Shown one piece after another: positions 1 through 13,084 of a DNA stretch of 64,000 bases (within the stretch, counting starts at the first letter, position 1; every line of letters starts with the position of its first letter). The translations under genes and the position numbers were made by a program. The stretch spans positions 145,002 through 209,001 of the forward strand of contig CAWEUF010000010.1 of NCBI GenBank assembly GCA_963812105.1, given 5' to 3'. The stretch comes from an uncultured Alphaproteobacteria bacterium. GTDB lineage: Bacteria > Pseudomonadota > Alphaproteobacteria > Rhizobiales > Methyloligellaceae. Under the pieces are notes generated by a model. The model had not been told where the DNA came from and searched no databases. It saw only the letters and a program-made list of their open reading frames with translations.

Positions 1-120
1 CGCCTTATCAATGAGTTTCGGCAACGCCTTCACGATCTGATTCTCGGCGTAATAGACGTCCTGCAAGGTGTGCAGGAACAAATCCTCCATCGATGTGATG
101 TCCTTACTGAACAGCCCCAT
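1..120 (-). CDS. Ferritin-like DUF892/YciF family protein, 5' part (runs off the window edge)
   Basis: Manual translation from ATG at 120: MGLFSKDITSMEDLFLHTLQDVYYAENQIVKALPKLIDKA, matching the DUF892 N-terminal pattern L.DLF...L.D.YYAE.QI.KALP; GGAAAGGA RBS upstream. Confidence 0.85.
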   Translation of the reverse strand, partial: MGLFSKDITSMEDLFLHTLQDVYYAENQIVKALPKLIDKA

Positions 121-196
121 GGGGTTGGCGTCCTTTCCTGGTCTTGGGTCATAGCTGCAATCAACTCCGACTAAGAAGCGGAGCGTTCAGGGACAT

Positions 197-221
197 AATT
201 TCGAACAAAGACGGAGGTTCC
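197..221 (-). promoter_or_regulatory. Possible sigmaEcfG (general stress) promoter for the DUF892 gene
   Basis: Minus strand GGAAC-N16-AATT versus consensus GGAAC-N16/17-CGTT; DUF892 genes are typical general-stress targets. Confidence 0.45.
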
Positions 222-272
222 AAACGGGCCGGGGCTCTGCTTGAGCGGGCGCGAATCGGATATGCTCGGGAC

Positions 273-509
273 ATGTTCCCTCGCCCCCATCCAAGCGACG
301 TCAAACGCAAGCTGATCGAGTTCGCTCCCGAGATCTGGCTGGCGCTCGAGCTGCTGGCCAAGGACAGCGGCAGAGACATCCAGGAGCTCGCCGAGGAAGC
401 CTTCGCCGACCTGCTCGGCAAATATCACCGTCCGGCCTCGCTGAAAGAGGCGCTGCGGGAAAGCGCTCGCCGGCTGCCGGCCAATGACGACATGCCGCCG
501 CCGCGCTGA
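273..509 (+). CDS. Small hypothetical protein, ribbon-helix-helix-like
   Basis: KRKLIEF strand followed by two helices (EIWLALELLAKDSG; IQELAEEAFADLLGKY); start uncertain. Confidence 0.55.
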   Translation: MFPRPHPSDVKRKLIEFAPEIWLALELLAKDSGRDIQELAEEAFADLLGKYHRPASLKEALRESARRLPANDDMPPPR

Positions 510-637
510 GGCTAGACCGGTCGCAAACTCCGGATAATCGGCGGCACCGCCGCCCAAAGTGGCCCCGCTGCAACGACTTGGCGCGTGACCCGTGGGGACG
601 CTAGAACCGTCTCTTCGCGTCAGGCCTGAGGATCACC

Positions 638-2017
638 GTGCCAATAGACAGCGCCGCAGCAGCCGCGTCCGCACATTTCGACGGCACCGGCGCAAGCTTC
701 GCCTGGTCGATTCCCTTTGTCGGACTCATTCTCTCGATCGCCTTCCTGCCGCTGATCGCGCCGCGCCTGTGGGAGCATCATTTCGGCAAGGTCGCGGCGT
801 TCTGGGCGATCGCCCTGCTCATTCCTTGCGCCGCGGTATTCGGCATCACCGCCGCCGTCACCGAGGTGCTCGACACGATCCTGCTCGATTATTTGTCGTT
901 CATCCTGCTGCTGTTCGCCCTGTTCGTGGTGGCGGGCGGGATCCGCGTGAGCGGCAATCTCGTCGGCACGCCGGCCACCAACACGGCGATCCTCGCCGTC
1001 GGCACGGTCTCGGCGAGCTTTCTCGGCACGACCGGCGCATCGTTGGTGCTGATCCGCCCCATGATCCGGGCCAATCAGGATCGCGCCTACAATGTCCACG
1101 TCTTCGTGTTCTTTATTTTTCTGGTGTCCAATATCGGCGGCTCCCTCACGCCGCTCGGCGACCCGCCGCTGTTTCTCGGCTTTTTGAAGGGCGTCGATTT
1201 TCTGTGGACGCTCGAGACCATGCTCAAGCCCATGCTGCTCGCGGGCGGTCTCCTGCTTGCGCTGTTCTATATGATCGACCGGCTGGCCTGGAACCGCGAA
1301 TGCGACGAAGTGAGAGCCAAGAGCCGGGTGCCGCGTCAGCTCCGCATCGAAGGCCTGCACAACGTGCTCTATCTCCTGGTCGTGGCGCTCACGGTGCTGG
1401 TGAGCGGCATCTGGAACAAGGACGCGACCATCGGGCTCGGGCTCGGCCTCGAAATGCCGGTCAACGGCTTGATCCGGGACATCATCCTCATCGCCGTTAG
1501 CCTGTTGTCGTGGTGGACCACGGCGCGGGCGATCCGCGTGGAGAACGCGTTCACTTGGGCGCCGATGCAAGAAGTGGCCATGCTGTTCGCCGCCATCTTC
1601 ATCACCATGATCCCGATGCTCGCGCTGTTGCAGGCGGGCAGCGAAGGGCCGTTCGCGCCGCTCCTAAGCCTGGTCTCGACGCCGGACGGGCAGCCACACG
1701 AAGCGGCCTATTTCTGGCTGACGGGCGGATTGTCGAGCTTCCTCGACAACGCGCCGACTTATCTCGTGTTCTTCAATCTGGCCGGCGGCGACGCGCAAAC
1801 GCTGATGGGCCCCCTCGCGCTCACCCTGCTCGCCATCTCGGCCGGCGCCGTGTTCATGGGCGCCAACACCTATATCGGCAACGCGCCCAATTTCATGGTG
1901 CGGTCGATCTGCGAGGAACGCGGCATCAGAATGCCGAGCTTCATCGGCTACATGCTGTGGTCCGGCGCGATCCTGTTGCCCCTGTTCGGGCTGGTCACCT
2001 GGGTGTTCTTCTTGTGA
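638..2017 (+). CDS. IT-superfamily membrane transporter (putative Na+/H+ antiporter or citrate transporter)
   Basis: 459 aa, many TM helices; motifs SNIGGSLTPLGDPPLFLG, SSFLDNAPTY, GANTYIGNAPN. Confidence 0.85.
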   Translation: MPIDSAAAAASAHFDGTGASFAWSIPFVGLILSIAFLPLIAPRLWEHHFGKVAAFWAIALLIPCAAVFGITAAVTEVLDTILLDYLSFILLLFALFVVAGGIRVSGNLVGTPATNTAILAVGTVSASFLGTTGASLVLIRPMIRANQDRAYNVHVFVFFIFLVSNIGGSLTPLGDPPLFLGFLKGVDFLWTLETMLKPMLLAGGLLLALFYMIDRLAWNRECDEVRAKSRVPRQLRIEGLHNVLYLLVVALTVLVSGIWNKDATIGLGLGLEMPVNGLIRDIILIAVSLLSWWTTARAIRVENAFTWAPMQEVAMLFAAIFITMIPMLALLQAGSEGPFAPLLSLVSTPDGQPHEAAYFWLTGGLSSFLDNAPTYLVFFNLAGGDAQTLMGPLALTLLAISAGAVFMGANTYIGNAPNFMVRSICEERGIRMPSFIGYMLWSGAILLPLFGLVTWVFFL

Positions 2018-2024
2018 CCGGGCT

Positions 2025-3068
2025 TTAGCCTTTGAGCCGCGCGAGGATGGCTTCGAGCGCCGCCACGGCCTCGGCCTTGTCGTGCTTCTGCAAATCGAGC
2101 AGGACCTTGAAGCCGTCCGCCTCCTCGCGGATCACGGTGCCTTCGCTGGCGAGATCGTCGTAAAGGCCGAGCACCTTGTAGCAGCGAACCGGCTCGGCAA
2201 AGCCCTTGGCCTTGATCGGCGTCTGCTCCTCCGCGGCCACCTCGTCCTTGACCAGGGAATAGGTCTCGTGGCCGATCAGGATGCCGTCGATCTCCGAGCC
2301 GGATTGGAGGCGCGCCGTCAAGTTCACTGCGCTGCCGATGATGGTGTAGTCCATGCGGTCCTCACCGCCGAAATTGCCGACGGTGCAATATCCGGTGTTG
2401 ATGCCGATGCGCAGATGAAAGGGCTGCTCGGCACCGAGCTCCACCCATTCTTCCCGCAGCTCGCGCAGACGCCGCAACATGGCGATGGCCATGCGCACAC
2501 AGGCCCGCGCATCCTCCTTGACCCCTCTGGTTTCCGGATCGCCGAAGAACACCATGATGGCGTCGCCGATATATTTGTCGATGGTGGCGCCGTGCTCGAG
2601 GGCGATATTCGACATCTCGGTGAGGTAGCGATTGAGCAGATTGGTGAGGTCCTCGGATTCGAGCTTGTCGGTGGTCTGGGTGAAATTCACCACGTCGGAG
2701 AAGAAGATGGTCAGCTTCTTGCGGCTGGAGGTGATCTCGACATTCTGCGCGCCGGTGAAGATCGAGTGGTAGATCTGCGGCGAGAGATATTTCGAGAGCT
2801 TGGTCGACAGCGCGTCGAGCTCCTTGTTCTTTTGCGTGATGATCTCGTTGGCGTGCCGCTGCTCCTTGCTGAGCGCGTTGAGCTGCTGCTCGTTCCGGTC
2901 GCTGAGTTTCATCAGCCGGCGCGTGGTGCGGAACAGCTTTTGATAGTCCTTGAGCAGCTCCTGATAGAGCTTGCCGGCGGCGGGGTCGGCCAAACGGCCC
3001 TGATCGAGCAGCCGTTGCGCGGCGGCGATGACCTGCTCCTCGGCCGCGAATAGGTCATCGGATGACAT
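2025..3068 (-). CDS. Class III adenylate cyclase with SiaD-like N-terminal coiled coil
   Basis: IFFSDVVNFT, DKYIGDAIM (adenine-specifying Lys), RIGINTG, DYTIIGSAVNLTARLQ; N-terminal helix YQKLFRTTRRLMKLSDR; ATG overlaps the siaC stop (TGATG). Confidence 0.9.
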   Translation of the reverse strand: MSSDDLFAAEEQVIAAAQRLLDQGRLADPAAGKLYQELLKDYQKLFRTTRRLMKLSDRNEQQLNALSKEQRHANEIITQKNKELDALSTKLSKYLSPQIYHSIFTGAQNVEITSSRKKLTIFFSDVVNFTQTTDKLESEDLTNLLNRYLTEMSNIALEHGATIDKYIGDAIMVFFGDPETRGVKEDARACVRMAIAMLRRLRELREEWVELGAEQPFHLRIGINTGYCTVGNFGGEDRMDYTIIGSAVNLTARLQSGSEIDGILIGHETYSLVKDEVAAEEQTPIKAKGFAEPVRCYKVLGLYDDLASEGTVIREEADGFKVLLDLQKHDKAEAVAALEAILARLKG

Positions 3069-3457
3069 CAGTCGGGCATTTTCTCTAGATGGAACTTGGC
3101 GTTTTCGAGATCCTCACCGAATTCCTCGCCAAGCTCCTGCATGGTGTCGTCTTCCTTGTCGTAATACCAATAGACGTCGACCGCCGCGCCGTTCTTGGCG
3201 GCGGCATCGAGCTTGTCCATCAGCATCATGACCGCCTTGGCGCTCGAGCTGTTGAGATAGATCAGCTCGAAATCGAAACGGCAGGTACCGCTGCCGAGAC
3301 CGCCGAGATAGGAGTCGAGCGCGGAGAACACCGGGCCATAAAACTCGGTGACGTCCTCGGGATAGGACTCGCCGGTGAGCTTCAGGTGGTTGGTTCGGAA
3401 ATCGAAGGCGACCGCCGGAGTGCGCGAAGTGGCCTCAATGTCGAATTTGTCTCGCAT
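3068..3457 (-). CDS. siaC: SiaC family (DUF1987) phosphoprotein
   Basis: IEATSRTP.V.FD, L.LTGESYPED..EFY.P, ELIYLNSSSAK, WYYDKEDD...ELGEEF. Confidence 0.9.
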   Translation of the reverse strand: MRDKFDIEATSRTPAVAFDFRTNHLKLTGESYPEDVTEFYGPVFSALDSYLGGLGSGTCRFDFELIYLNSSSAKAVMMLMDKLDAAAKNGAAVDVYWYYDKEDDTMQELGEEFGEDLENAKFHLEKMPD

Positions 3458-3467
3458 GTCCCGGCCT

Positions 3468-4043
3468 TCAGATCGTTGCTTTGAGCGCGAAAAACGCGCT
3501 GCCGTTGCCGAGGTCGATGAAATCGAACTCCAGGGGTTTGGAGGCGCGCCGGGCGATCTCCATGAAACCGAGCCCTGCCCCCTTGCTGCCGACTTCGGGC
3601 TCGGATCGCAGCTGCTCCTTATAAAGCACCTTCAGCTCATCCTTGCTCATGTCCCTGATCCGGGTGAGCCGCGTGTTCAATCGGTCGATGTCCCTGGGCT
3701 CGATAAGGTTGCCGGCGCATACGACGTAATCGTCCCCTTCCTTGCCGATCGTTAATATGCCGTAGCGGATTTCCTTGAGCGCGCTGGCCTCCGAGGCAGG
3801 CGGCAGCGCGGCGTGCGACTTCTCGGCGGAGTAGCGAATGATGTTCTGCATCTGCTCGACGAAGACGGCGAACACGCTTCGAAGCGTCTTGGTGTCGGCG
3901 TCGTCGATGGTGAGCTTCTGCTTGAGCGCTTCGCCGACGCCGCTCAGGACCGGTTCGGTGACATAGCCGCTATAGGCGAAGATGACTCCCTGGTTGTGGA
4001 GCATCGCTCGCATGTCCATGAGTTGGGAAGCGAGCATGGGCAT
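3468..4043 (-). CDS. siaB: SiaB family GHKL-like Ser/Thr protein kinase
   Basis: IFAYSG, VFVEQMQNIIRYS, LYKEQLR, SKGAGLGFMEIARRAS; lies between a PP2C gene and siaC. Confidence 0.88.
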   Translation of the reverse strand: MPMLASQLMDMRAMLHNQGVIFAYSGYVTEPVLSGVGEALKQKLTIDDADTKTLRSVFAVFVEQMQNIIRYSAEKSHAALPPASEASALKEIRYGILTIGKEGDDYVVCAGNLIEPRDIDRLNTRLTRIRDMSKDELKVLYKEQLRSEPEVGSKGAGLGFMEIARRASKPLEFDFIDLGNGSAFFALKATI

Positions 4044-4046
4044 CTC

Positions 4047-6923
4047 CTAAGAGTGGGGGACGAAACCCAACACCGTGAGATCGTCGCGGCGGAGTTGCTG
4101 ACCCTGGTAGGTGGCAATGGCGTGGCGCAGGGATTCCTCCTGCTCGCTCATGGGAACGCCGCGGTTTTTCTTGAGCAGTTCCTGGAAGCGCCGCTTGCCG
4201 AACGAGCGGCCGCGCGGGCCGCCGATCTGATCGATCAACCCGTCGGTGGTCAGATAGAAGGTGTCGCTGCTGTCGAACGGCAGGGCGATGTCGGTGAAGG
4301 TCGTTTCGAGCGGGTAGCGGCGGTAACCGAGCCCCTTGCGATCGCCCTTGATCTCGATCACGCCCTTCTTATTCGCCCGCCACAGCGAGAACCGCGCGCC
4401 GGCAAACGTCATCGTGCGCTTCTTGGGATTGATGAAGCAGATGCCGGCTTCAAGCCCGTCGTCGGTCTCGCCCCGTTGCGCGTCCTGGCCGAGCAGGCTT
4501 TGCACTCCGCGATGCAGCCCGGTCAGCACCTGACTCGGATTGTCGGTATCGGCGCTGCGCAGCATGCGGTCGAGCAGGCCCCAAGCGATCAGAGTCATAA
4601 AGGCGCCCGGGACGCCGTGACCGGTGCAATCTCCGACCATCACGGCATAGCCGTCGCTGATGGGCTGGAACCAGAAGAAGTCGCCGCCGACGATGTCGCG
4701 CGGCTCCCAAATGAGGAAATGGTCGGCGGCCACCACGCCGAGCTCCTCGCGCGCCGGCAACACGGCCGCCTGGATGCGGCTGGCATAGCGCAGGCTTTGC
4801 AGGATCAGTTGATTGGCGGCGGCGGCCCGCTGCTCGCTGTCCTTGACCTCGGTCAGGTCGCTATAGACGGCGACGGTGCCGCCGGTCTCGGTGCGCCGCT
4901 CGCTGATCTGCAGCCAGCGTCCGTCGGAGCGGCGCTGCAACAGAGGCAGGCCGGGATGGCGATGCTCGGCAAGCCGCTGCCGGATCCAGCCCTCCTCCCG
5001 GCCCTTGGCGTCGTGGATGAGGCCATGCGCGACCGCGCTGCGGATGATCTCCTCGAACGTCGTGCCCGGCTTCGGCGCACCGCCGCCGAGGTCAAATAGC
5101 TCGGCATATTTGTGGTTGCCGAGCACCAGCCGATCCTCGTTGTCGTAGAGCGAAAAGCCTTCGGAGATGGTATCGATGGCGTCGGTCAGGCGCTGCTCGC
5201 TTTCCGCCAAGGCGGCCTGCTCGGCCGTCTTGCGCGCAGTGACCTCGCTCCAGGAGCCGATCACTTCGAGCGGATTGCCGTTCTGGTCCTTGACCAGGTG
5301 CTGCTCGTCGCTCACCCAGCAATAGATGCCGTCGGACTTGCGGAATCGGTACTCGGCGACGTTCCGGCCTTGCTCGAATAGCTTCGCCTGGCCCGCCTCG
5401 ACCTCGGCGAGGTCCTCGGGATGGACCCGCGAACGCCAAAACTCCGGGTCCTTCAAATATTGGTCGGGCTCGTAGCCCAACACCCGCTTGATGTTGTCGC
5501 TGACGAAGGTTGGCGCATAGGAACCGCCGGCCTCGAAGCTATAGACCACCGCCGGGGCGCCATGAAGCAGCAGGTCGAACCGCGCCCGCGCTTGGTTCTC
5601 GGCCTGCTCGGCCTGCTTGCGCGAGCTGATATTGCTCCATGAGCCGACGATCTCGATCGGCTCCCCGTCGTCGCCGCGCAATAGATATTGCTCGTCGCTC
5701 ACCCAGATGTAATTGCCGTTGCGCTTGCGGAAGCGGTACTCGGCGGCGTGTCTGCCCTTCTCGAACAGCTTCGCCTGCTCGGCCTCGACCGCGGGCAGAT
5801 CCTCGGGGTGGACGTTGTTGCGCCAGAAGTCGGCGTGCTCGAGATATTTCTCGGGGCAATAGCCGAGCAGGCGCTTGATGTTCTCGCTGACGAAGGTCGG
5901 CGCGTAATCGCCGCTTGCCTTGAAGCTGTAGATCACCGATGGCGCGCTTTCGAGCAGAGCCGATAGTCGCGCACGGGCGGCGTCCTCGGCCGCTTCGGCG
6001 CTCTTGCGGTCGGTGACGTCGCTCCACGAGCCCACGATCTCGAACGGCTCGCCATTCTCGTCGCGGATGAGATGCTGCTCGTCGCTCACCCAGCGATAAT
6101 GTCCGTCTTTCTTGCGGAAGCGGTATTCGGCGGTGTGGCGGTCGCGTTCGAACAGGAGCGCCTGTTCCGCCTCGACTGAATCGATGTCGTCGGGATGCAC
6201 GCGGGCGCGCCAGAAGGCCGCATCCTTGAGATATTCGTCCGGGCAATAGCCGAGCAGGCGCTTGATGTTCTCGCTGACGAAGGTCGGCGCGTAATCGCCG
6301 CTCGCCTTGAAGCTGTAGATCACCGATGGCGCGCTATCGAGCAGAAGCGCAAGCCGTTCGCGGGCCCGGTCCTCGGCCAATTCGGCGGCCTTGCGCGCGG
6401 TGATGTCGCTCCACGAGCCCACCACCTCCGACGGCGCACCCTGCTTGTCACGGATGAGATGCTGGTCGTCGTTCACCCAGCAATAGGAGCCGTCTTTGCG
6501 CCGGAAGCGATATTCGATCGCGTGGTGGCCCTGTTCGAACAGGGCGTCCATCTCGCCCTCGATGCGCGGAAGATCGTCGGGATGCACGCGCTCGCGCCAG
6601 AAATTCGGATTTTCGAGATATTCGCTCGCGGCATATCCGAACAGCCGCATGATGTTCTCGCTGACAAAGGTCGGCGCGAAATCGCCCTTGGCTTCGAAGC
6701 TATAGATCACCGCCGGAGAGGCTTCGAGCAGCCGGGACAATCGGATCGCGGCCGCAGCCTCGACTTCAGCCAAATGCTGGCGTTCGTCCTCGTCTCGCTC
6801 GCGCGTCGCGTCGGCCAAGACACTCTCGAAGATATCGGCCACTTTGCCAGAATCGGCGTCGGCTCGCAGCATTTTACCAAGCGCCGTGGCAGCAATCTCG
6901 GCGTATTTTCTGGACGAGGTCAT
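4047..6923 (-). CDS. SiaA-like PP2C (SpoIIE) phosphatase with four tandem PAS/PAC domains plus a fifth PAS; no TM helices
   Basis: Four repeats of FVS(E/D)NI...GY...Y....FW...VHP(D/E)D...EYRFR..(D/N)G.Y.WV.D; C-terminal YASRIQAAVLP, PRDIVGGDFFW, GDCTGHGVPGAFMT, TTDGLIDQIGG, RRDDLTVLG; start uncertain. Confidence 0.88.
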   Translation of the reverse strand: MTSSRKYAEIAATALGKMLRADADSGKVADIFESVLADATRERDEDERQHLAEVEAAAAIRLSRLLEASPAVIYSFEAKGDFAPTFVSENIMRLFGYAASEYLENPNFWRERVHPDDLPRIEGEMDALFEQGHHAIEYRFRRKDGSYCWVNDDQHLIRDKQGAPSEVVGSWSDITARKAAELAEDRARERLALLLDSAPSVIYSFKASGDYAPTFVSENIKRLLGYCPDEYLKDAAFWRARVHPDDIDSVEAEQALLFERDRHTAEYRFRKKDGHYRWVSDEQHLIRDENGEPFEIVGSWSDVTDRKSAEAAEDAARARLSALLESAPSVIYSFKASGDYAPTFVSENIKRLLGYCPEKYLEHADFWRNNVHPEDLPAVEAEQAKLFEKGRHAAEYRFRKRNGNYIWVSDEQYLLRGDDGEPIEIVGSWSNISSRKQAEQAENQARARFDLLLHGAPAVVYSFEAGGSYAPTFVSDNIKRVLGYEPDQYLKDPEFWRSRVHPEDLAEVEAGQAKLFEQGRNVAEYRFRKSDGIYCWVSDEQHLVKDQNGNPLEVIGSWSEVTARKTAEQAALAESEQRLTDAIDTISEGFSLYDNEDRLVLGNHKYAELFDLGGGAPKPGTTFEEIIRSAVAHGLIHDAKGREEGWIRQRLAEHRHPGLPLLQRRSDGRWLQISERRTETGGTVAVYSDLTEVKDSEQRAAAANQLILQSLRYASRIQAAVLPAREELGVVAADHFLIWEPRDIVGGDFFWFQPISDGYAVMVGDCTGHGVPGAFMTLIAWGLLDRMLRSADTDNPSQVLTGLHRGVQSLLGQDAQRGETDDGLEAGICFINPKKRTMTFAGARFSLWRANKKGVIEIKGDRKGLGYRRYPLETTFTDIALPFDSSDTFYLTTDGLIDQIGGPRGRSFGKRRFQELLKKNRGVPMSEQEESLRHAIATYQGQQLRRDDLTVLGFVPHS
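5854..6344. repeat. Intragenic direct repeat between PAS2 and PAS3 (387-nt period)
   Basis: 5854-5957 and 6241-6344 are identical apart from two substitutions by eye. Confidence 0.85.
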
Positions 6924-6980
6924 TAAAGGATTGTGTCGAGCGGTGTTAAAGGGCGGAGGGAACGGCTTACAGCGTAAACG

Positions 6981-7009
6981 ATATTTTCGAGCCTACCAGC
7001 GTCTGTCAA
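6981..7009 (-). promoter_or_regulatory. Possible sigma70 promoter of the sia-cyclase operon
   Basis: Minus strand TTGACA-N17-AAATAT about 60 nt upstream of the ATG. Confidence 0.35.
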
Positions 7010-7256
7010 TGGCACGACTTGGCCATAGCCCCGCGAGTCATGTGACGGTTGGATGAACGCGGCAGAAGGTCTGCCCAGTAGGCCGGCCTGCAGAACGCCG
7101 GAGAGCCGATCGTCCGCCGGCAACGCGAGGCAAACGACCCCCGTGCCCCGGCCGGGTGCGATCCGGAGCACGGAGGGGTATCCTAACTATGGGCCGCGCC
7201 TGATTTGCGCCGCGCTCCAGCGCGGACCCGCCATTCGCGACTGAGGAGTGCAGTCC

Positions 7257-7466
7257 TTACTGCGCAGGTGCCTCTGGGGCCGGTGCCTCTGGCGCCGGTG
7301 CTTCAGGCGCTGGTGTTTCAGGCGCCGGTGGCGTTTCGGCGGCCGGCATTTCCGATTTGCCGAGCACGCAATTGATCAAAGTCCCGTCGTACTTGCAGTC
7401 CCGGCTTTGCGCCCGAACCACAACAATAACGGCGGCAATAACAATCAAAATTAGAAGAATTCGCAT
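7257..7466 (-). CDS. Small membrane-anchored or secreted protein with a Cys pair and a (PEAPA)n tail
   Basis: N-terminal hydrophobic stretch, C-x8-C, Pro/Glu/Ala pentapeptide repeats; GGGAGG RBS. Confidence 0.65.
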   Translation of the reverse strand: MRILLILIVIAAVIVVVRAQSRDCKYDGTLINCVLGKSEMPAAETPPAPETPAPEAPAPEAPAPEAPAQ

Positions 7467-7728
7467 TCAAGCACCCTCCCTTTTGCGCTGGCGTAAAGTA
7501 TACGAACGGGCGGCAAACAAAAAGGGCTCCGGGCCGGATTTCATGATGTCGTCATCCGCCCTGTCCGGGGCTCGGCAAGGCCCGTAAAAGGGCGCTAGCC
7601 GCGGTTTCAGCCCCGTTCCCGACCCTATTGGCCCTAATAAAGGGGGCGTGGCCCGATCGCGGCCCCGTACCCCAAGCCCCAAGCACCGCTGTTTGTACTT
7701 CACGCAGAGTCTCCTTAGATCAGTGCCG

Positions 7729-8706
7729 ATGATGGATCGTGAGCGAAGATCGCCATTTTGCCGCGTGGTCTCGCGCCAGGACGTCCTGCGCGCCGCGCTG
7801 ATGCTGGCAGCCGCTCCCTTGCTACGCTTCGTGCCGGCACAAGCAGCCGAGGGGATGGCGGTCAGCGAGGTCGCGCCTGGCATATTCGTCCATCAGGGAC
7901 GCTACGAGTTGCAGTCGCCCCAAAATCGCGGCGACATGGCCAATGCGAGCTTCGTGGTCGGCAGCGACGCGGTCGCGGTGATCGACACGCTGGGCAGCGC
8001 GGTCGCCGGGCGCGAGCTCAGAAATGCCATTCGCGCGGTGACCGACAAGCCGATCCGCTACGTGATCAATACCCACATGCATCCCGACCACGTGTTCGGC
8101 AATGCGGCCTTCAAGGAGGACAATCCGGCGTTCGTGGGCCACTACAAGCTGGCCCGCGGGCTGGCCACGCGGGCCGACCGCTATCTCGCCATCAACAAGC
8201 AGATGCTGGGCGACGAGGCGTTCGAGGGGACTGAGATCATCTTGCCCACGCTCGCCGTCGAGAACACCACCACGCTCGATCTCGGCGGCCGCACGCTCAC
8301 GCTGGAGACGCAGCCGACCGCCCATACCGACAACGATCTCACCATCACTGACAGTGCGACCGACACGCTGTTCCTCGGCGATCTCCTGTTCTCGGTCCAT
8401 GTGCCGACCCTCGACGGGTCGATCAGAGGCTGGCTGGCCTTGCTCGACCGGCTGGCGAGCAAGAACGCCGCGCGCGTCATTCCCGGTCATGGGCCGCACG
8501 CCATGGAGCTGCCCGAGGCGATCGAGCCCGAGCAGCGCTACCTCGCCGCCATCGCCGGCGATGTCAGGCGCTTGATCGAAGAGGGCAAGACGCTCGAGGA
8601 GGCCACCAAAACCGCGGGATTTTCCCAGCGCGATTCCTGGAAATTGTTCGATCACTATCATGTCCGCAACGTCACGGCGGCCTTCGCAGAACTGGAATGG
8701 GAGTGA
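7729..8706 (+). CDS. Quinoprotein relay system zinc metallohydrolase (MBL fold, SoxH-like), exported
   Basis: NTHMHPDH, AHTDND, GDLLF, PGHG; C-terminal RNVTAAFAELEWE; signal peptide; adjacent to a SoxYZ-like gene. Confidence 0.85.
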   Translation: MMDRERRSPFCRVVSRQDVLRAALMLAAAPLLRFVPAQAAEGMAVSEVAPGIFVHQGRYELQSPQNRGDMANASFVVGSDAVAVIDTLGSAVAGRELRNAIRAVTDKPIRYVINTHMHPDHVFGNAAFKEDNPAFVGHYKLARGLATRADRYLAINKQMLGDEAFEGTEIILPTLAVENTTTLDLGGRTLTLETQPTAHTDNDLTITDSATDTLFLGDLLFSVHVPTLDGSIRGWLALLDRLASKNAARVIPGHGPHAMELPEAIEPEQRYLAAIAGDVRRLIEEGKTLEEATKTAGFSQRDSWKLFDHYHVRNVTAAFAELEWE

Positions 8707-8707
8707 T

Positions 8708-9544
8708 ATGATGGGACGAAGCCAACACAGGACGGTGCCATGCCCCTGCCCTTCAAGCGTCCTAGCCTATGCCGCGCTGGCCGGACTGCTGCTGTTCTCG
8801 GTCGCCGCGAAGGCCGACGAGGACGTCTGGCCGATGCTCAAGAGCCAAGCGTTCGGCGACCGCGCCATTGCCGAAGACGGCATGGTGGTGCTCGAGATTC
8901 CGGGTACGGCCGAAGACGCGGCGCTGGTGCCGCTGACCGTGCGCGTGCCGCCTTCGGTCAAGCAGAACCTCAAATCGCTGACCCTGTTCATCGACAAGAA
9001 CCCCGATCCCAAAGTGGCGACCCTCAATTTCGGGCCGGCGGCGGGCAATGGCGGCGAGCGTAGCTTCTCGACCCGGGTGCGGATCGACAATTTCTCCTAT
9101 GTGCGCGCCGTGCTCGAAACCGAAGACGGCACGCTGCATATGGCGAGCAAATTCATCGCGGCGGCGGGCGGCTGCGCCGCCATGCAGGCCAAGGATCCCG
9201 ACAGCGAGACGGTCGATCTCGGCAAGATGATCGTCAGGACCTTCCCCCCTGCCCTCGAGTCGAGCCCGATTTGGTCGGCTCAGGTGATGATCAAGCACCC
9301 GAACGCCAACGGCATGCAGCTCGACATCAACACCGCAAATTTCATCCCCGCGCGTTTCGTCAGATCCATGACGGTCAAGCGCGGCGGGCAGTTGGTGTTT
9401 GACATGCAGAGCACGTTCTCGCTGTCGACCAACCCGAATTTCCGCTTCACCTTCGGGCGCGGCGCCGACAACAGCCTCGATGTCGCCATCACCGACACCG
9501 ACGACACGCGGTTCACCGCGCAGTCGGAGCCGAGCGGGTCGTAG
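8708..9544 (+). CDS. Quinoprotein dehydrogenase-associated SoxYZ-like carrier (fused SoxY-SoxZ)
   Basis: AEDAALVP, IDKNPDP, STRVRID, swinging-arm AAGGC, IKHPN..G.Q.D, SLSTNPNFRF; signal peptide. Confidence 0.85.
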   Translation: MMGRSQHRTVPCPCPSSVLAYAALAGLLLFSVAAKADEDVWPMLKSQAFGDRAIAEDGMVVLEIPGTAEDAALVPLTVRVPPSVKQNLKSLTLFIDKNPDPKVATLNFGPAAGNGGERSFSTRVRIDNFSYVRAVLETEDGTLHMASKFIAAAGGCAAMQAKDPDSETVDLGKMIVRTFPPALESSPIWSAQVMIKHPNANGMQLDINTANFIPARFVRSMTVKRGGQLVFDMQSTFSLSTNPNFRFTFGRGADNSLDVAITDTDDTRFTAQSEPSGS

Positions 9545-9826
9545 TTATTCGGCCGCTGACGGCTTGCTGGAATAGAAGATGTGCGCCTTGAGCAGGAACT
9601 CCTCGGGCTTCTTGAGGAAGAGCTGCTTGGCGGTCTCGTTGCCGAAGCAATAGGTGCTGCCGGCATAGACAGTGTTGATCGAGCAGTCCGTCTTGATTTC
9701 CTTGCCGAGCGCGAGCCCCATCACGCAGTCATTATCGAACTCGCCTTCCGTTGCGGCGAAAGCCGGCAGGCTGAGGCTGAGGCTGACCATGGCCGCAATC
9801 GCGGCCAACCGCATCGTTTTCGGCAT
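9545..9826 (-). CDS. Small exported YHS-like domain protein
   Basis: Signal peptide ending AFA; GSTYCFGNETAKQLFLKKPE resembles the YHS G..Y.F....K..F...PE pattern; GAGGA RBS. Confidence 0.7.
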   Translation of the reverse strand: MPKTMRLAAIAAMVSLSLSLPAFAATEGEFDNDCVMGLALGKEIKTDCSINTVYAGSTYCFGNETAKQLFLKKPEEFLLKAHIFYSSKPSAAE

Positions 9827-9849
9827 TAATTTTTCCTCGCAGCGAAGGC

Positions 9850-9925
<76 letters not shown>

Positions 9926-10028
9926 TAGATCCGCCTCTGTGTGGGAAGGCGCACCTTGAGGGTGTCGCCACCCAAGGGTGCTCCCCTTAACACTGCGCTC
10001 GCTTGCCTGTCCAGGGTCGGCCCGCCGG

Positions 10029-11186
10029 TCACCAAAACGGGCCCATCTCCTCCCGCCTCAGCCGGACGTCCCGGTTGACATGGGCGTTCAGCACGAAACC
10101 CAGGCCTACCATCATGGTCAGCATCGAGGTGCCGCCATAAGACACCAGCGGCAGCGGCACGCCCACCACCGGCACCAGCCCGGTCACCATCGCCACATTG
10201 ATGAACACATAGGCGAACAGGCACAGACCCATGCCGGCGGCCACCAGCCGGGTGAACGTGCTGCGGCATCTGAGCGCCATATAGGTGATGAACAGCAGCG
10301 CGAGAAGGTAGAGCACCAGCAGCACGGCGCCGCCGATGAAGCCCATCTCCTCGGAGAACATGGTGAAGATAAAGTCGGTGTGCTTCTCGGGCAGGAAATT
10401 CAGCTGGGCCTGGGTTCCCTGCATGAAGCCCTTGCCGGTGAATCCGCCGGAGCCGATGGCGATCTTCGACTGCAGGATGTGGTAGCCGGACCCGCTCGGA
10501 TCGCGCTCGGGATCGATGAAGGTCAGAATCCGTTCCTGTTGATAGTCGTGCAGCCGCTCCCACACATGGGGCAGCACCGCAATGACGCCGACAAACGCGG
10601 CGAGGAAGTAAATCCAACTCACGCCGGCGAGAAACAGCAAGCCGCAGCCGACGATGCCGAACAGCGCCGCGGTGCCGAGATCGGGCTGATCCAAGGCCAG
10701 AATGATCGGGGCGCCGATCATCAGCAGCGGCGGCAGCACGGCGTAAGGCCACGACACCTGCTTGGGCGACAGCCACTGGTAATAGCGGGCGATAGCCAGA
10801 ACGAGCGCGATCTTCATCAATTCGGAGGGCTGGAAGCTGAACTCGCCATAGCCCAGCCAGCGCTTGGCGCCACCGCTCTCCACGCCGAACAGGATCACCG
10901 CCGCCAACATCAGCAGCGCAACCACATAAAGCGGGTAGGCAGCGCGCAGCCACCAGCGGATATCGGACAGCGCGACGGCGAACAGCAGCCCCAGGCCCAG
11001 GCAATAGCGCACCACGTGGCGGCTGGCCCACGGCTCAAGCGCGCCGCCCGCCACCGAATAGAGCGCCGCCACGCCGATCATGGTGATGGCGGTGATGAGC
11101 AACAGGAAAGGCCAGTTCAGCGCGATCAGCTTGGCCTTGAGCTTGAGCTGGGGCTGCTCGAAGCCCTCCGCGAACAGCGTCTTCAT
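10029..11186 (-). CDS. rodA: Rod shape-determining SEDS protein RodA
   Basis: GAKRWL, FQPSELMK, QPDLGT, GYHILQSKIAIGSGG, PEKHTDFIF, PLVSYGGTS. Confidence 0.95.
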   Translation of the reverse strand: MKTLFAEGFEQPQLKLKAKLIALNWPFLLLITAITMIGVAALYSVAGGALEPWASRHVVRYCLGLGLLFAVALSDIRWWLRAAYPLYVVALLMLAAVILFGVESGGAKRWLGYGEFSFQPSELMKIALVLAIARYYQWLSPKQVSWPYAVLPPLLMIGAPIILALDQPDLGTAALFGIVGCGLLFLAGVSWIYFLAAFVGVIAVLPHVWERLHDYQQERILTFIDPERDPSGSGYHILQSKIAIGSGGFTGKGFMQGTQAQLNFLPEKHTDFIFTMFSEEMGFIGGAVLLVLYLLALLFITYMALRCRSTFTRLVAAGMGLCLFAYVFINVAMVTGLVPVVGVPLPLVSYGGTSMLTMMVGLGFVLNAHVNRDVRLRREEMGPFW

Positions 11187-13084
11187 CGGGGTCGTTCCGC
11201 GGCGGCGATCACCGCCGGATTGCGCAGCAGAATTTCGGTCATCACGTCGCGCACCACCGGCGCCGCGGCGCGCGACCCGCCGCCGCCATGCTCGACCACG
11301 CAGGCGGCCGCGTAGCGGGGCGCGTCTGCCGGCGCGTAGGCGATGAACAGAGCATGGGTTTCCCCTTCCCAGCCCTTGAGCTTGTGCTGGTTCTTGGCGC
11401 TGATCACCTGCGAGGTGCCGGTCTTGCCCGACATCTGCACGCCGGGAATCGCCAGCGCCGAGCGGACGGCGGTGCCTTTCGGCTCATTGACCACGCCGAA
11501 CATGCCGGCGCGCACGATCTCGAGATGGACCGGATCGATGTCGAGCAGCGGCGGGGGCTCGACGACGCGCTCGCCGGGCATCAGCAAGCGCGGCGACACC
11601 GCCCTTCCCGTGGCAATCCTCGCCGTGGCGACGGCAAGCTGGAGGGGCGTGGTCGCGACATAACCCTGGCCAATGCCGCAGCTAATGGTTTCGCCCTCAT
11701 ACCAAGGCTGATTGAAGTACCGGCGCTTCCAAGCCTTATCCGGAACGATGCCACGCTTTTGTCCGGTGAATCCGATGTCGTGAATCTGGCCGAGGCCGAG
11801 CAGGCGCGAGGTGACGGCGAGGCGATCGATGCCCACGCGCTTGACCGTCTCATAGAAATACGTGTCGCAGGACTGCTTGATGGCGTTGTGCACGTCGATG
11901 CCGCCGCCATGGGTCTTCCAGCAGCGGAAGCGGTGGCGCGCGAACACGTAGCTGCCGGGGCAGTTCATGGTCTCAGTTGGAGTGATGACGCCGGTCTCGA
12001 GCCCGGCGAGCGCGGTGACCACCTTGAAGGTCGAGCCGGGCGGATAGACACCGCGCAGCGCCCGATTTTCGAGTGGATGGTCCTTGTTTCGCGCCAGCTC
12101 CCGCCACCGATCGCGGTTGACCTTGAAGGAAATCTCGTTGGGATCGAAGGTCGGATAGGAGGCCATCACCAGGATGCCGCCGGTCACCACGTCGAGCACG
12201 ACGATGGAAGCCACGCGCAGGCCCTCGATGCGCTTGAGCGCGATGTCTTGCAGCTCCTGATCGATGGTCAGCACCATGTCCTTGCCGCGCACGCTCGGGG
12301 TCGCGCCGAGCTGGCGGACCACGCGGCCATGGGCATCGACCTCGTATTTGATGTTGCCCGGCTGCCCTCTCAGCTCAAGGTCGAGGCCCTTTTCCAGCCC
12401 GGCCTTGCCGGTGCGAAATCCGGGCACCCGCATCAGCGGATCCTCGTCGACCTCGTCCTTGTCGGCCATGCCGACATAGCCGACCACATGGGCCATACCG
12501 CGGCCGTGGCTATAGCGGCGGTACGTCGCTCGGTCGGTGCGGACGCCGGGCAGCTGCGGGGCCAGCACGCTCAGCAAAGTGAACTGCCGCCAGGTCAGCC
12601 CCTCGGTGACGAGCACGGGGAAATATCCGCTCTGGCGCCGCGCCGCCCGCCTGACGCGATCCTTGTCGGCGGCAGAGATGGGGATGATCTTTGCAACAGC
12701 GGCGAGCGTCGCCGACAGGTCTTCGCAGAACGCCGGGATGACGATGACGCGGAAATTCTCCTTGTCGGCCGCCACCGTCCTGCCGAAGCGGTCATAGATC
12801 GATCCGCGCGCCGGCGCCACCAGCTGCATGGTGATGCGATTTTCGTCGGATAGCAGCCGGTATTCCGAGGTATCCAGGATCTGCAATTGGCGCAATCGCC
12901 ACAACAGCAATCCGAACAATCCCGTCTGGCCGGCCCCGATCAGCACGGCGCGCCGCGAGAAGCGGTGGCGCAGCTTCACCGCAGGATCCCGCGGCTTGGC
13001 GTTGCCGACGAGGTATTTGAAGGTTTTCCGCGCCGAGAACTGACGCCGAGGCGATGGCTTATAAGGAGACGGCGGTCGCTTCAC
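11183..13084 (-). CDS. mrdA: Penicillin-binding protein 2
   Basis: PARGSIYDRFG, PPGSTFK, SCD, KTGTSQV, EHGGGGS; GTG start at 13084 overlaps the mreD stop (GTGA). Confidence 0.93.
   Translation of the reverse strand: MKRPPSPYKPSPRRQFSARKTFKYLVGNAKPRDPAVKLRHRFSRRAVLIGAGQTGLFGLLLWRLRQLQILDTSEYRLLSDENRITMQLVAPARGSIYDRFGRTVAADKENFRVIVIPAFCEDLSATLAAVAKIIPISAADKDRVRRAARRQSGYFPVLVTEGLTWRQFTLLSVLAPQLPGVRTDRATYRRYSHGRGMAHVVGYVGMADKDEVDEDPLMRVPGFRTGKAGLEKGLDLELRGQPGNIKYEVDAHGRVVRQLGATPSVRGKDMVLTIDQELQDIALKRIEGLRVASIVVLDVVTGGILVMASYPTFDPNEISFKVNRDRWRELARNKDHPLENRALRGVYPPGSTFKVVTALAGLETGVITPTETMNCPGSYVFARHRFRCWKTHGGGIDVHNAIKQSCDTYFYETVKRVGIDRLAVTSRLLGLGQIHDIGFTGQKRGIVPDKAWKRRYFNQPWYEGETISCGIGQGYVATTPLQLAVATARIATGRAVSPRLLMPGERVVEPPPLLDIDPVHLEIVRAGMFGVVNEPKGTAVRSALAIPGVQMSGKTGTSQVISAKNQHKLKGWEGETHALFIAYAPADAPRYAAACVVEHGGGGSRAAAPVVRDVMTEILLRNPAVIAAAERPR

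Follow-up and report, generated by a model that had tools for sequence, protein, structure and literature searches.

Introduction

Control of an enzyme by the phosphoprotein SiaC has been characterized in a single case, the SiaABCD system of Pseudomonas aeruginosa (structures 6k4e, 6kko, 6k4f, and 7e6g), in which unphosphorylated SiaC activates the GGDEF enzyme SiaD; the SiaC literature that was found covers this one output, an enzyme of cyclic di-GMP (c-di-GMP) metabolism. Here, we describe a related locus in a 64,000-nt stretch of DNA (hereafter, the window) from an uncultured Alphaproteobacteria bacterium (contig CAWEUF010000010.1, assembly GCA_963812105.1), where siaA-, siaB- and siaC-like genes are followed by a gene for a class III nucleotide cyclase predicted to synthesize cyclic AMP (cAMP). 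In the crystal structure of the P. aeruginosa complex, T68 of SiaC inserts between two SiaD stalk helices and bonds S82 and Q86, and phosphorylation of SiaC prevents SiaD binding (PMC8457831). One sentence of the same source speculates that DUF1987 proteins, such as SiaC, “modulate the activity of adjacent proteins”, none being named there.

Other partner switches combine a Ser/Thr kinase-phosphatase pair, a small phosphoprotein and a second-messenger enzyme in the same way, judging from the published descriptions of HptB-HsbR-HsbA/HsbD (P. aeruginosa), BgrUWV/BgrR (Sinorhizobium meliloti) and MtT/MtG (Moorella). In contrast to the Sia system, those use STAS proteins or stressosome parts; they control c-di-GMP, and none of the passages on them reports control of a cAMP enzyme. 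Full-text searches, with subscription papers mostly out of reach, found no paper on a SiaC-controlled adenylate cyclase, in agreement with the first-pass annotation of this DNA, made from its letters alone, whose author knew of no characterized example.

A Sia-type gene run ending in a class III cyclase

The locus consists of four open reading frames (ORFs) running head to tail on the minus strand from 6923 to 2025 (Table 1). Read directly from the sequence, the intergenic gaps are 3 and 10 nt, followed by a TGATG overlap (−1 nt) at 3070-3066, so that the tight coupling noted in the first-pass annotation is confirmed. Its domain assignment (PAS5-PP2C phosphatase, SiaB, SiaC of the DUF1987 family, class III cyclase) agrees with Pfam and NCBIfam searches, in which the profiles for SiaC, SiaB/DUF6272, SpoIIE and Guanylate_cyc were matched and GGDEF was not.

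The fourth product matches PF00211 (Guanylate_cyc) with 93.8 bits, and neither a GGDEF family nor SiaD (NF038266) was found on it in Pfam or NCBIfam, in line with the earlier note, which saw no GGDEF motif. Its catalytic domain is close to that of CyaB (3r5g), with an E-value of 5.8e-70 and, by Foldseek, 56% identity and a template modeling (TM) score of 0.89 by target. All the motifs previously cited for a metal Asp pair, an adenine-selecting Lys/Thr pair and an Asn/Arg pair are present, i.e., FSDV (D125), DKYIGD (K165 and D169), DYTI (T242) and VNLTAR (N249 and R253), and these six residues are invariant in 30/30 aligned orthologues, chosen for diversity. D125 and D169 are presumed to hold the metals and N249 and R253 to serve the transition state. 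A Lys together with an Asp or a Thr at the base-selecting sites marks adenylyl cyclases (PMC5967339), and the IDK and DYTI segments containing K165 and T242 match those of CyaB, the major adenylate cyclase of P. aeruginosa, which is activated by the Chp system and FimV (10.1101/116954). CyaB is membrane-bound via MASE2, whereas the operon cyclase is soluble, with no MASE2 match in Pfam and no hydrophobic stretch in its hydropathy profile, and bears a SiaC-type helix instead. In an AlphaFold monomer (mean predicted local distance difference test score 79), a helix (residues 3-22) and a single long helix (29-94) precede the catalytic domain. A segment resembling the cyclase transducer element (CTE) described in PMC5995499 is strongly conserved, K93, Y94, L95, Q98 and Y100 being invariant in the 30 orthologues.

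The three upstream products retain the catalytic and phospho-site positions of their P. aeruginosa counterparts. The phosphatase contains four PAS_3 domains, one PAS_7 and one SpoIIE domain (Pfam/NCBIfam). Its PP2C part aligns with SiaA (6k4e) at an E-value of 1.4e-59, and this alignment maps D748, D765, G768, D894, G895 and D947 onto D457, D474, G477, D600, G601 and D653, the active-site residues of SiaA named in PMC7647112. The SiaA equivalog NF038263, built for a full-length membrane-bound HAMP-PP2C protein, is matched in the C-terminal part only (246.5 bits, cut-off 700). No transmembrane stretch was detected by hydropathy in the phosphatase (peak 19-residue value 1.17) or in any of the four operon proteins. 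SiaB (DUF6272) exceeds the cut-off of the SiaB-family kinase profile NF038262 (192.9 bits against 85), remains under that of the narrower equivalog NF038264 (112.9 against 225), and aligns with 6kko_A at 2.2e-23; its GAGLG box is retained and E63 occupies the position of E61, the predicted catalytic Glu of P. aeruginosa SiaB (PMC7647112). An AGGAG 6 nt ahead of the second Met (4037), and lengths of 186-189 aa in most close orthologues, make this Met the more likely siaB start. SiaC matches PF09345 (137.9 bits, cut-off 24.5) and the structures 6k4f, 6kko and 7e6g (E about 4e-21; 3.8e-21 for 6k4f), with 99.3 bits for the equivalog NF038265 (cut-off 150); hence, all three products score below the narrow Sia equivalog cut-offs. 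The YLNSSS segment of SiaC aligns with YLNTSS of its P. aeruginosa counterpart, which places S70 at the T68 position. Y67, N69 and S70 are invariant in 30/30 aligned orthologues, and a Ser occupies the phospho-site in 105 of the 110 SiaC ORF matches of the fetched loci described below.

The locus thus shares with SiaABCD the A-B-C-output order, the homologous PP2C, kinase and SiaC, the catalytic and phospho-site positions, and an output protein starting with a helix that bears an R-x-S-D-R motif. It differs in its output, a class III cyclase instead of a GGDEF enzyme, in having one docking motif instead of two, in its soluble phosphatase with five PAS domains where SiaA is a transmembrane/HAMP protein, and in the Ser at the phospho-site. 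On this comparison, the operon would work like SiaABCD without being a strict member, SiaD and a membrane-bound SiaA being absent.

Two observations concern the sensor part of the phosphatase. Its PAS_3 units are near-identical tandem repeats of ~129 aa, and the 958- and 829-aa orthologues compared (L004, L005, L049) differ by exactly 129 residues, which fits the gain or loss of one whole repeat. Outside the genus, the phosphatase input varies (MHYT/HAMP, SBP_bac_3, MASE1, HAMP) and siaB-siaC-cyclase is constant.

Likeness of the cyclase helix to the SiaC-binding motif of SiaD

The segment RRLMKLSDRNE of the long cyclase helix aligns with the SiaC-binding motif KVARISDRYQ of SiaD. A profile of the helix aligned both SiaD motifs of 7e6g (S82 and S50) to the S-D-R-N-E core, with S56 on S82, as a weak match (E 0.27). 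In a profile-profile comparison, the helix gave a probability of 94.9% against six SiaD-type stalks cut around the motif and 98.4% against twelve GGDEF stalks, and only 0.4% against a control of eleven paralogue linkers; one of the stalks, L131, belongs to a true SiaD (NF038266 361.7 bits, cut-off 290). Intermediate sequences bridge the gap between the cyclase helix and the SiaD motif. When the contacts of the SiaC-SiaD complex were mapped without gaps, 9 of the 14 SiaC contact residues were identical, 2 conservative and 3 changed, and the 13 SiaD contact residues gave 3 identical, 5 conservative and 5 changed positions on the helix. Neither partner of the R103-D91 salt bridge is retained here (T105 and A65). 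Within the cyclase, column conservation is 0.80 for residues 50-63, close to that of the catalytic core (0.79), and 0.56 for the linker (residues 64-83).

The helix is not confined to cyclases. A profile built from cyclases only retrieved 728 proteins at E ≤ 0.001 from a representative library. Among the best 150 of these 728, the 82 proteins of at least 200 aa comprised, by Pfam, 34 histidine kinases, 19 GGDEF proteins and 14 class III cyclases, the remainder being 3 SpoIIE, 1 HD, 1 GAF only, 1 SiaC, 1 PEPCK and 8 without family. A homologous-protein search with the helix profile gave 228 matches, the best 120 of which were dominated by close cyclase orthologues. In the ESM Atlas, residues 1-95 of a homologue returned 30 matches with no common Pfam family, the top clusters being labeled “hypothetical protein”. 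A precomputed domain, PF27241, is shown on two cyclase orthologues and may correspond to the helix. An apparent SiaC-helix fusion (P0262) was rejected, as the C-terminus of SiaC runs out of frame into the next gene.

Conservation of the wiring

Eighty loci were fetched around siaC relatives. A cyclase was present in 67/80 and all four parts in 62/80, including records of Tritonibacter, Pseudodesulfovibrio, Limnohabitans and Rhodospirillales. Among the 13 loci without cyclase, 2 end at a contig edge, 9 have a helix-led protein of ~690 aa and 2 show no visible output. Frame breaks occur in several of the 80 loci. The locus is also present in cultured strains, although in two of these the deposited sequence contains frame breaks. 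The nearest relatives, which reach 91% identity in SiaC, are recorded under the names Methyloceanibacter or uncultured Alphaproteobacteria. Within the family, 57 of 141 genomes are siaC-positive, all in the source genus (56/116 plus the source genome), and in 56 of these 57 the cyclase starts at most 300 nt downstream of siaC, the exception being G867. Because four parts recur in 62/80 loci and the cyclase lies downstream in 56/57 family genomes, the conserved pairing is not due to chance, and the genes are syntenic elsewhere, a check put forward with the first-pass annotation.

The helix also separates the operon cyclase from its own paralogues. All 16 paralogous cyclases compared within the family, 57-73% identical in the catalytic domain, lack it (none above 5 bits) and have other N-termini; siaB, siaC and PP2C genes are absent from the 4.8-9 kb around them, two of these stretches ending at a contig edge. 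Of the 23,938 ORFs of the source genome, a single one carries the helix (92.9 bits, next best 8.3), and siaC is likewise present once. Across 401 genomes of the phylum, with at most 14 candidates scored per genome, helix and siaC were found together in 57, the helix only in 2 (weak matches), siaC only in 12 and neither in 330; the helix was thus present in 59 genomes, 57 of them with siaC, and siaC in 69. Two of the 12 siaC-only genomes carry two-motif SiaD-type genes scoring below threshold. By position, 61 of the 91 helix matches are within 6 kb of siaC, including 48 that lie at most 150 nt downstream of it.

Spacing between the predicted docking site and the catalytic domain

In the operon cyclase, S56 is separated from the Tyr of the CTE-like segment by 38 residues. 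Over distinct cyclase segments, this spacing was 38 (108 segments), 31 (29), 24 (5) or 45 (1), i.e., in steps of seven for 143/146. Of the three off-register segments, L042 and L045 are mis-picks of a later residue that align without gaps at 38, and P0254 is the third. In GGDEF proteins, the distance from the motif to D-x-L-T was 21, 28 or 35 in 17/19 and 49 in three more, with 21 in SiaD. Such length steps of seven suggest that the angle between docking site and catalytic dimer is under selection. This is in line with engineered phytochrome cyclases, in which a seven-residue periodicity governs coupling and one-residue shifts invert its sign (PMC5995499); therefore, the direction of control is unreadable from sequence.

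Proposed mechanism and alternative explanations

Given the gene order, domain identities, catalytic residues, motif, co-occurrence with siaC and spacing observed above, it is fairly probable that a SiaA/B/C switch fronts a soluble predicted adenylate cyclase, and that unphosphorylated SiaC binds its helix and switches cAMP synthesis on. According to this scheme, the five cytoplasmic PAS domains would set PP2C activity in response to an intracellular signal. By homology, and with the catalytic residues kept, PP2C would remove the phosphate of SiaC S70 and SiaB would add it. As motif homology and co-occurrence suggest, free SiaC would bind RRLMKLSDRNE where the two cyclase chains pair in a parallel coiled coil, one site per chain leading to a 2:2 complex versus 2:4 for SiaD. 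There, S70 would stand against S56/E60, where its phosphate would clash with D57/E60 and result in release. Judged from the heptad spacing, the clamped coil would hold the transducer element, 38 residues farther on, in a fixed register and thereby favor the active dimer. The cAMP produced could then be read by CRP-family or other cyclic-nucleotide-binding proteins encoded elsewhere in the genome. Indeed, potential cAMP receptors exist in the source genome, none linked to the operon: 12 cyclic-nucleotide-binding domain matches (10 over the cut-off) and 6 CRP-type helix-turn-helix matches (5 over the cut-off) were found, along with five further class III cyclases.

The PAS_3 repeat type of the phosphatase also heads two other proteins of the source genome (L082:7311-11560, G000:C8, and L081:5805-9991, G000:C3). 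One is a hybrid histidine kinase with a similar N-terminal leader (58% identical), whose gene precedes that of a REC-adenylate cyclase; the other is a PAS-cyclase adjoining a CRP-family gene. A single type of sensor may serve three routes to cAMP in the source genome.

Several points weigh against the proposed activation by SiaC. Searches of the Protein Data Bank score SiaD at E 1.5 with the cyclase-only profile and at the 0.27 given above, below unrelated helical proteins; SiaD was not matched in a single-sequence search of the same database with the helix, and no significant similarity emerged when the helix was compared with a SiaD orthologue by pairwise BLAST (E 0.075). The way in which the SiaD-type segments were cut favors a match, so that the profile-profile test is partly circular, as is the co-occurrence test, its helix profile having been built from siaC neighbors. 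Kin are not independent in that count, nor among the spacings, where the 108 segments sharing one value come mostly from close relatives. Furthermore, 30/91 helix matches lie more than 6 kb from a siaC match or on another contig. On the helix, the five changed contact residues include Y85N and M88Q, and one docking motif stands where SiaD has two. The conserved surface of SiaC also serves SiaA and SiaB, so that its conservation does not single out the cyclase, and in the phosphatase R906 occupies the position of SiaA F612, which a simulation suggested to enter a pocket of SiaC (PMC7647112). Finally, none of these analyses bears on the direction of control.

A first alternative is an inverted logic relative to SiaD, in which SiaC on the same helix would act as an inhibitor or would bind actively when phosphorylated. 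In class III cyclases, a register shift of one residue reverses the sign with which the coiled coil is coupled (PMC5995499), the spacing of the cyclase to the CTE Tyr (3 modulo 7) is not directly comparable with the 0 modulo 7 of GGDEF proteins, and the motif differs at Y85N and Q86E. The latter change, from Q86 to E60, nevertheless adds a negative charge by the phospho-site, which should disfavor phospho-SiaC, and the sole characterized case is activation by the unphosphorylated form; an inverted switch is thus considered unlikely. A second alternative departs from SiaC binding altogether: the cyclase would be co-regulated with siaABC and unbound by SiaC, its helix being a dimerization coil and the SiaC target lying elsewhere in the genome. 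The weak direct similarity to SiaD leaves room for this, as do the 14 GGDEF matches of a source genome that is only 85% complete. However, the 16 paralogues away from siaC all lack the motif, the helix tracks siaC over the 401 genomes and over unrelated output domains, no other ORF of the source genome carries it, and the motif, unlike the flanking coil, equals the catalytic core in conservation. Co-regulation without contact is therefore held to be quite improbable. It is also conceivable that the switch controls a cyclase whose product is cyclic GMP (cGMP) or another cyclic nucleotide, since helix-bearing cyclases of other organisms (P0193, P0228 and P0271) have a Glu at the base-selecting site and cGMP versions of the switch probably exist. 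For the operon enzyme itself, the adenine-type pair K165/T242 and the CyaB-like IDK and DYTI segments make this most implausible.

Overall, the SiaC-gated cAMP module proposed in the first-pass annotation is supported as far as the SiaD-like motif, the co-occurrence with siaC and the synteny are concerned; binding, the direction of control, cAMP rather than cGMP as the output, and co-transcription are still inferred.

Other outputs behind siaC and evolution of the helix

Which output follows siaC was surveyed in 50 siaC loci of the class and phylum samples, with 1.5 kb flanks and the source locus left out. The helix-led neighbor was a GGDEF protein in 19, a histidine kinase in 4 more, GAF-led in 5, a class III cyclase in 3, a SpoIIE protein in 1 and of unidentified type in 2, and the other 16 loci showed no such neighbor. 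Hence, the cAMP form is a minority output overall and, from the 141 family genomes, the rule in the source genus. It occurs in about half of the sampled genomes of this genus, whose records are named Methyloceanibacter. The earlier description of a Sia module “rewired to a different second messenger” is too narrow, as output enzymes of five kinds or more begin with the helix: besides the cyclase, it was found on GGDEF, histidine-kinase, HD-type, PP2C and predicted guanylate-cyclase proteins. The SiaD of P. aeruginosa appears to be a single instance of a broader scheme.

Three further variants were noticed. The ~690-aa helix-led protein following siaC in L059, L061-L063, L065, L066, L068, L073 and L075 contains GAF and HD_5 domains in the five that were scanned, with records from Magnetococcales, Azospirillaceae and others; it is a predicted c-di-GMP phosphodiesterase, with an activity opposite to that of SiaD. 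In P0193, P0228 and P0271, the Glu at the Lys site comes with a TKYGVVG-type segment, which suggests guanylate cyclases and hints at a cGMP form of the switch. L064 has the order siaA-siaC-siaB-cyclase and a very distant cyclase domain that is nonetheless preceded by the helix, suggesting that the same wiring was put together independently there.

In a tree of 39 catalytic domains, which has no true root and from which the extraction pattern left out P0193, P0197, P0228, P0271 and L150, cyclases with and without the helix are intermixed, with 4 changes, at least 2 of which are forced by well-supported branches. A single origin of all helix-bearing cyclases was rejected (approximately unbiased test, p-AU 0.0002; 28 vs 11 rows, long branches present). 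This intermixing and the rejected clade mean that the helix was swapped with other input domains on more than one occasion, with gains indistinguishable from losses.

These data make it probable that the helix of ~30 residues, with the pattern Y-x-K-L-x-x-x-x-R-R-L-x-R-L-S-D-R, is an unannotated, portable SiaC-docking domain, and that SiaABC is a general phospho-switch for adenylate, guanylate and diguanylate cyclases, HD-type phosphodiesterases, histidine kinases and PP2C phosphatases, the helix keeping a heptad register to the catalytic dimer in every case. If so, the operon would be its cAMP form and, within the reach of our searches, the first partner switch with a cAMP output. The regulation of class III cyclases would gain a protein-partner, phospho-gated control, and the helix would provide a sequence tag for SiaC targets in any genome. 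With the docking site named and located on a cAMP-type enzyme, the speculation on DUF1987 proteins becomes directly testable. The operon recombines known parts by a known principle, with no new kind of chemistry.

Promoter candidate and genomic context

The coordinates of the locus are given in Table 1. The promoter candidate ends 58 nt upstream of the siaA-like ATG, its TTGACA lying 86 nt upstream. Of 15 aligned upstream regions, which are otherwise divergent (mean column identity 45%), 14 retain this hexamer. The candidate −10 matches the consensus at 3/6 positions only, and for this reason the candidate was not flagged by the consensus scan; the promoter and terminator scan gave counts at chance level (1 vs 1.3 and 5 vs 4.8). 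Taken with the gaps of 3, 10 and −1 nt, the conserved TTGACA fits a single operon. The guanine-cytosine content of the operon (0.60-0.65) is close to that of the remainder of the window.

Table 1. Features of the Sia-type cyclase locus (positions in the window).
Feature	Position	Strand	Remarks
SiaA-like soluble sensor phosphatase, 958 aa	4047..6923	-	4x ~129-aa PAS_3, PAS_7, SpoIIE/PP2C
SiaB-family kinase, 191 aa	3468..4043	-	Probable start 4037 (189 aa)
SiaC phosphoprotein, 129 aa	3068..3457	-	S70 (YLNSSS) as predicted phospho-site
Soluble class III cyclase, 347 aa, predicted adenylate cyclase	2025..3068	-	CyaB-like catalytic domain
Predicted SiaC-docking helix, cyclase residues 38-66	2871..2957	-	Core S56-D57-R58-N59-E60 at nt 2903-2889
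Cyclase transducer element-like segment LSKYLSPQIY, residues 91-100	2769..2798	-	Aligns with the -FGRY- CTE region of 6fht
Cyclase catalytic domain, residues 116-298	2175..2723	-	D125/D169 presumed metal, K165/T242 predicted adenine, N249/R253 presumed transition state
Sigma70-like promoter candidate	6981..7009	-	TTGACA 7009-7004, 17 nt, AAATAT 6986-6981

A putative citrate transporter gene (CitMHS_2, 638-2017, plus strand) converges on the cyclase gene with 7 nt between the stops and occurs in 26/80 related loci. Farther along, an antitoxin-like ribbon-helix-helix small gene (144-509, plus strand; PF20605 just under the cut-off) recurs in 40/80. Divergent from the operon, genes for a quinoprotein relay zinc metallohydrolase (TIGR04559) and a SoxYZ-like carrier (TIGR04557) lie at 7648-9544 (plus strand), with counterparts in 32/80 and 31/80 related loci, respectively, a neighborhood that is probably genus-level synteny, although a link to PQQ metabolism is conceivable. 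A tRNA gene at 9853-9925 (minus strand) was the sole Rfam match over positions 1-12000 of the window, with no riboswitch match. Upstream of the operon, an unannotated ORF of 69 aa (7257-7466, minus strand) begins with a hydrophobic stretch, contains two Cys and ends in a Pro/Glu/Ala repeat, and probably encodes a small exported or membrane protein.

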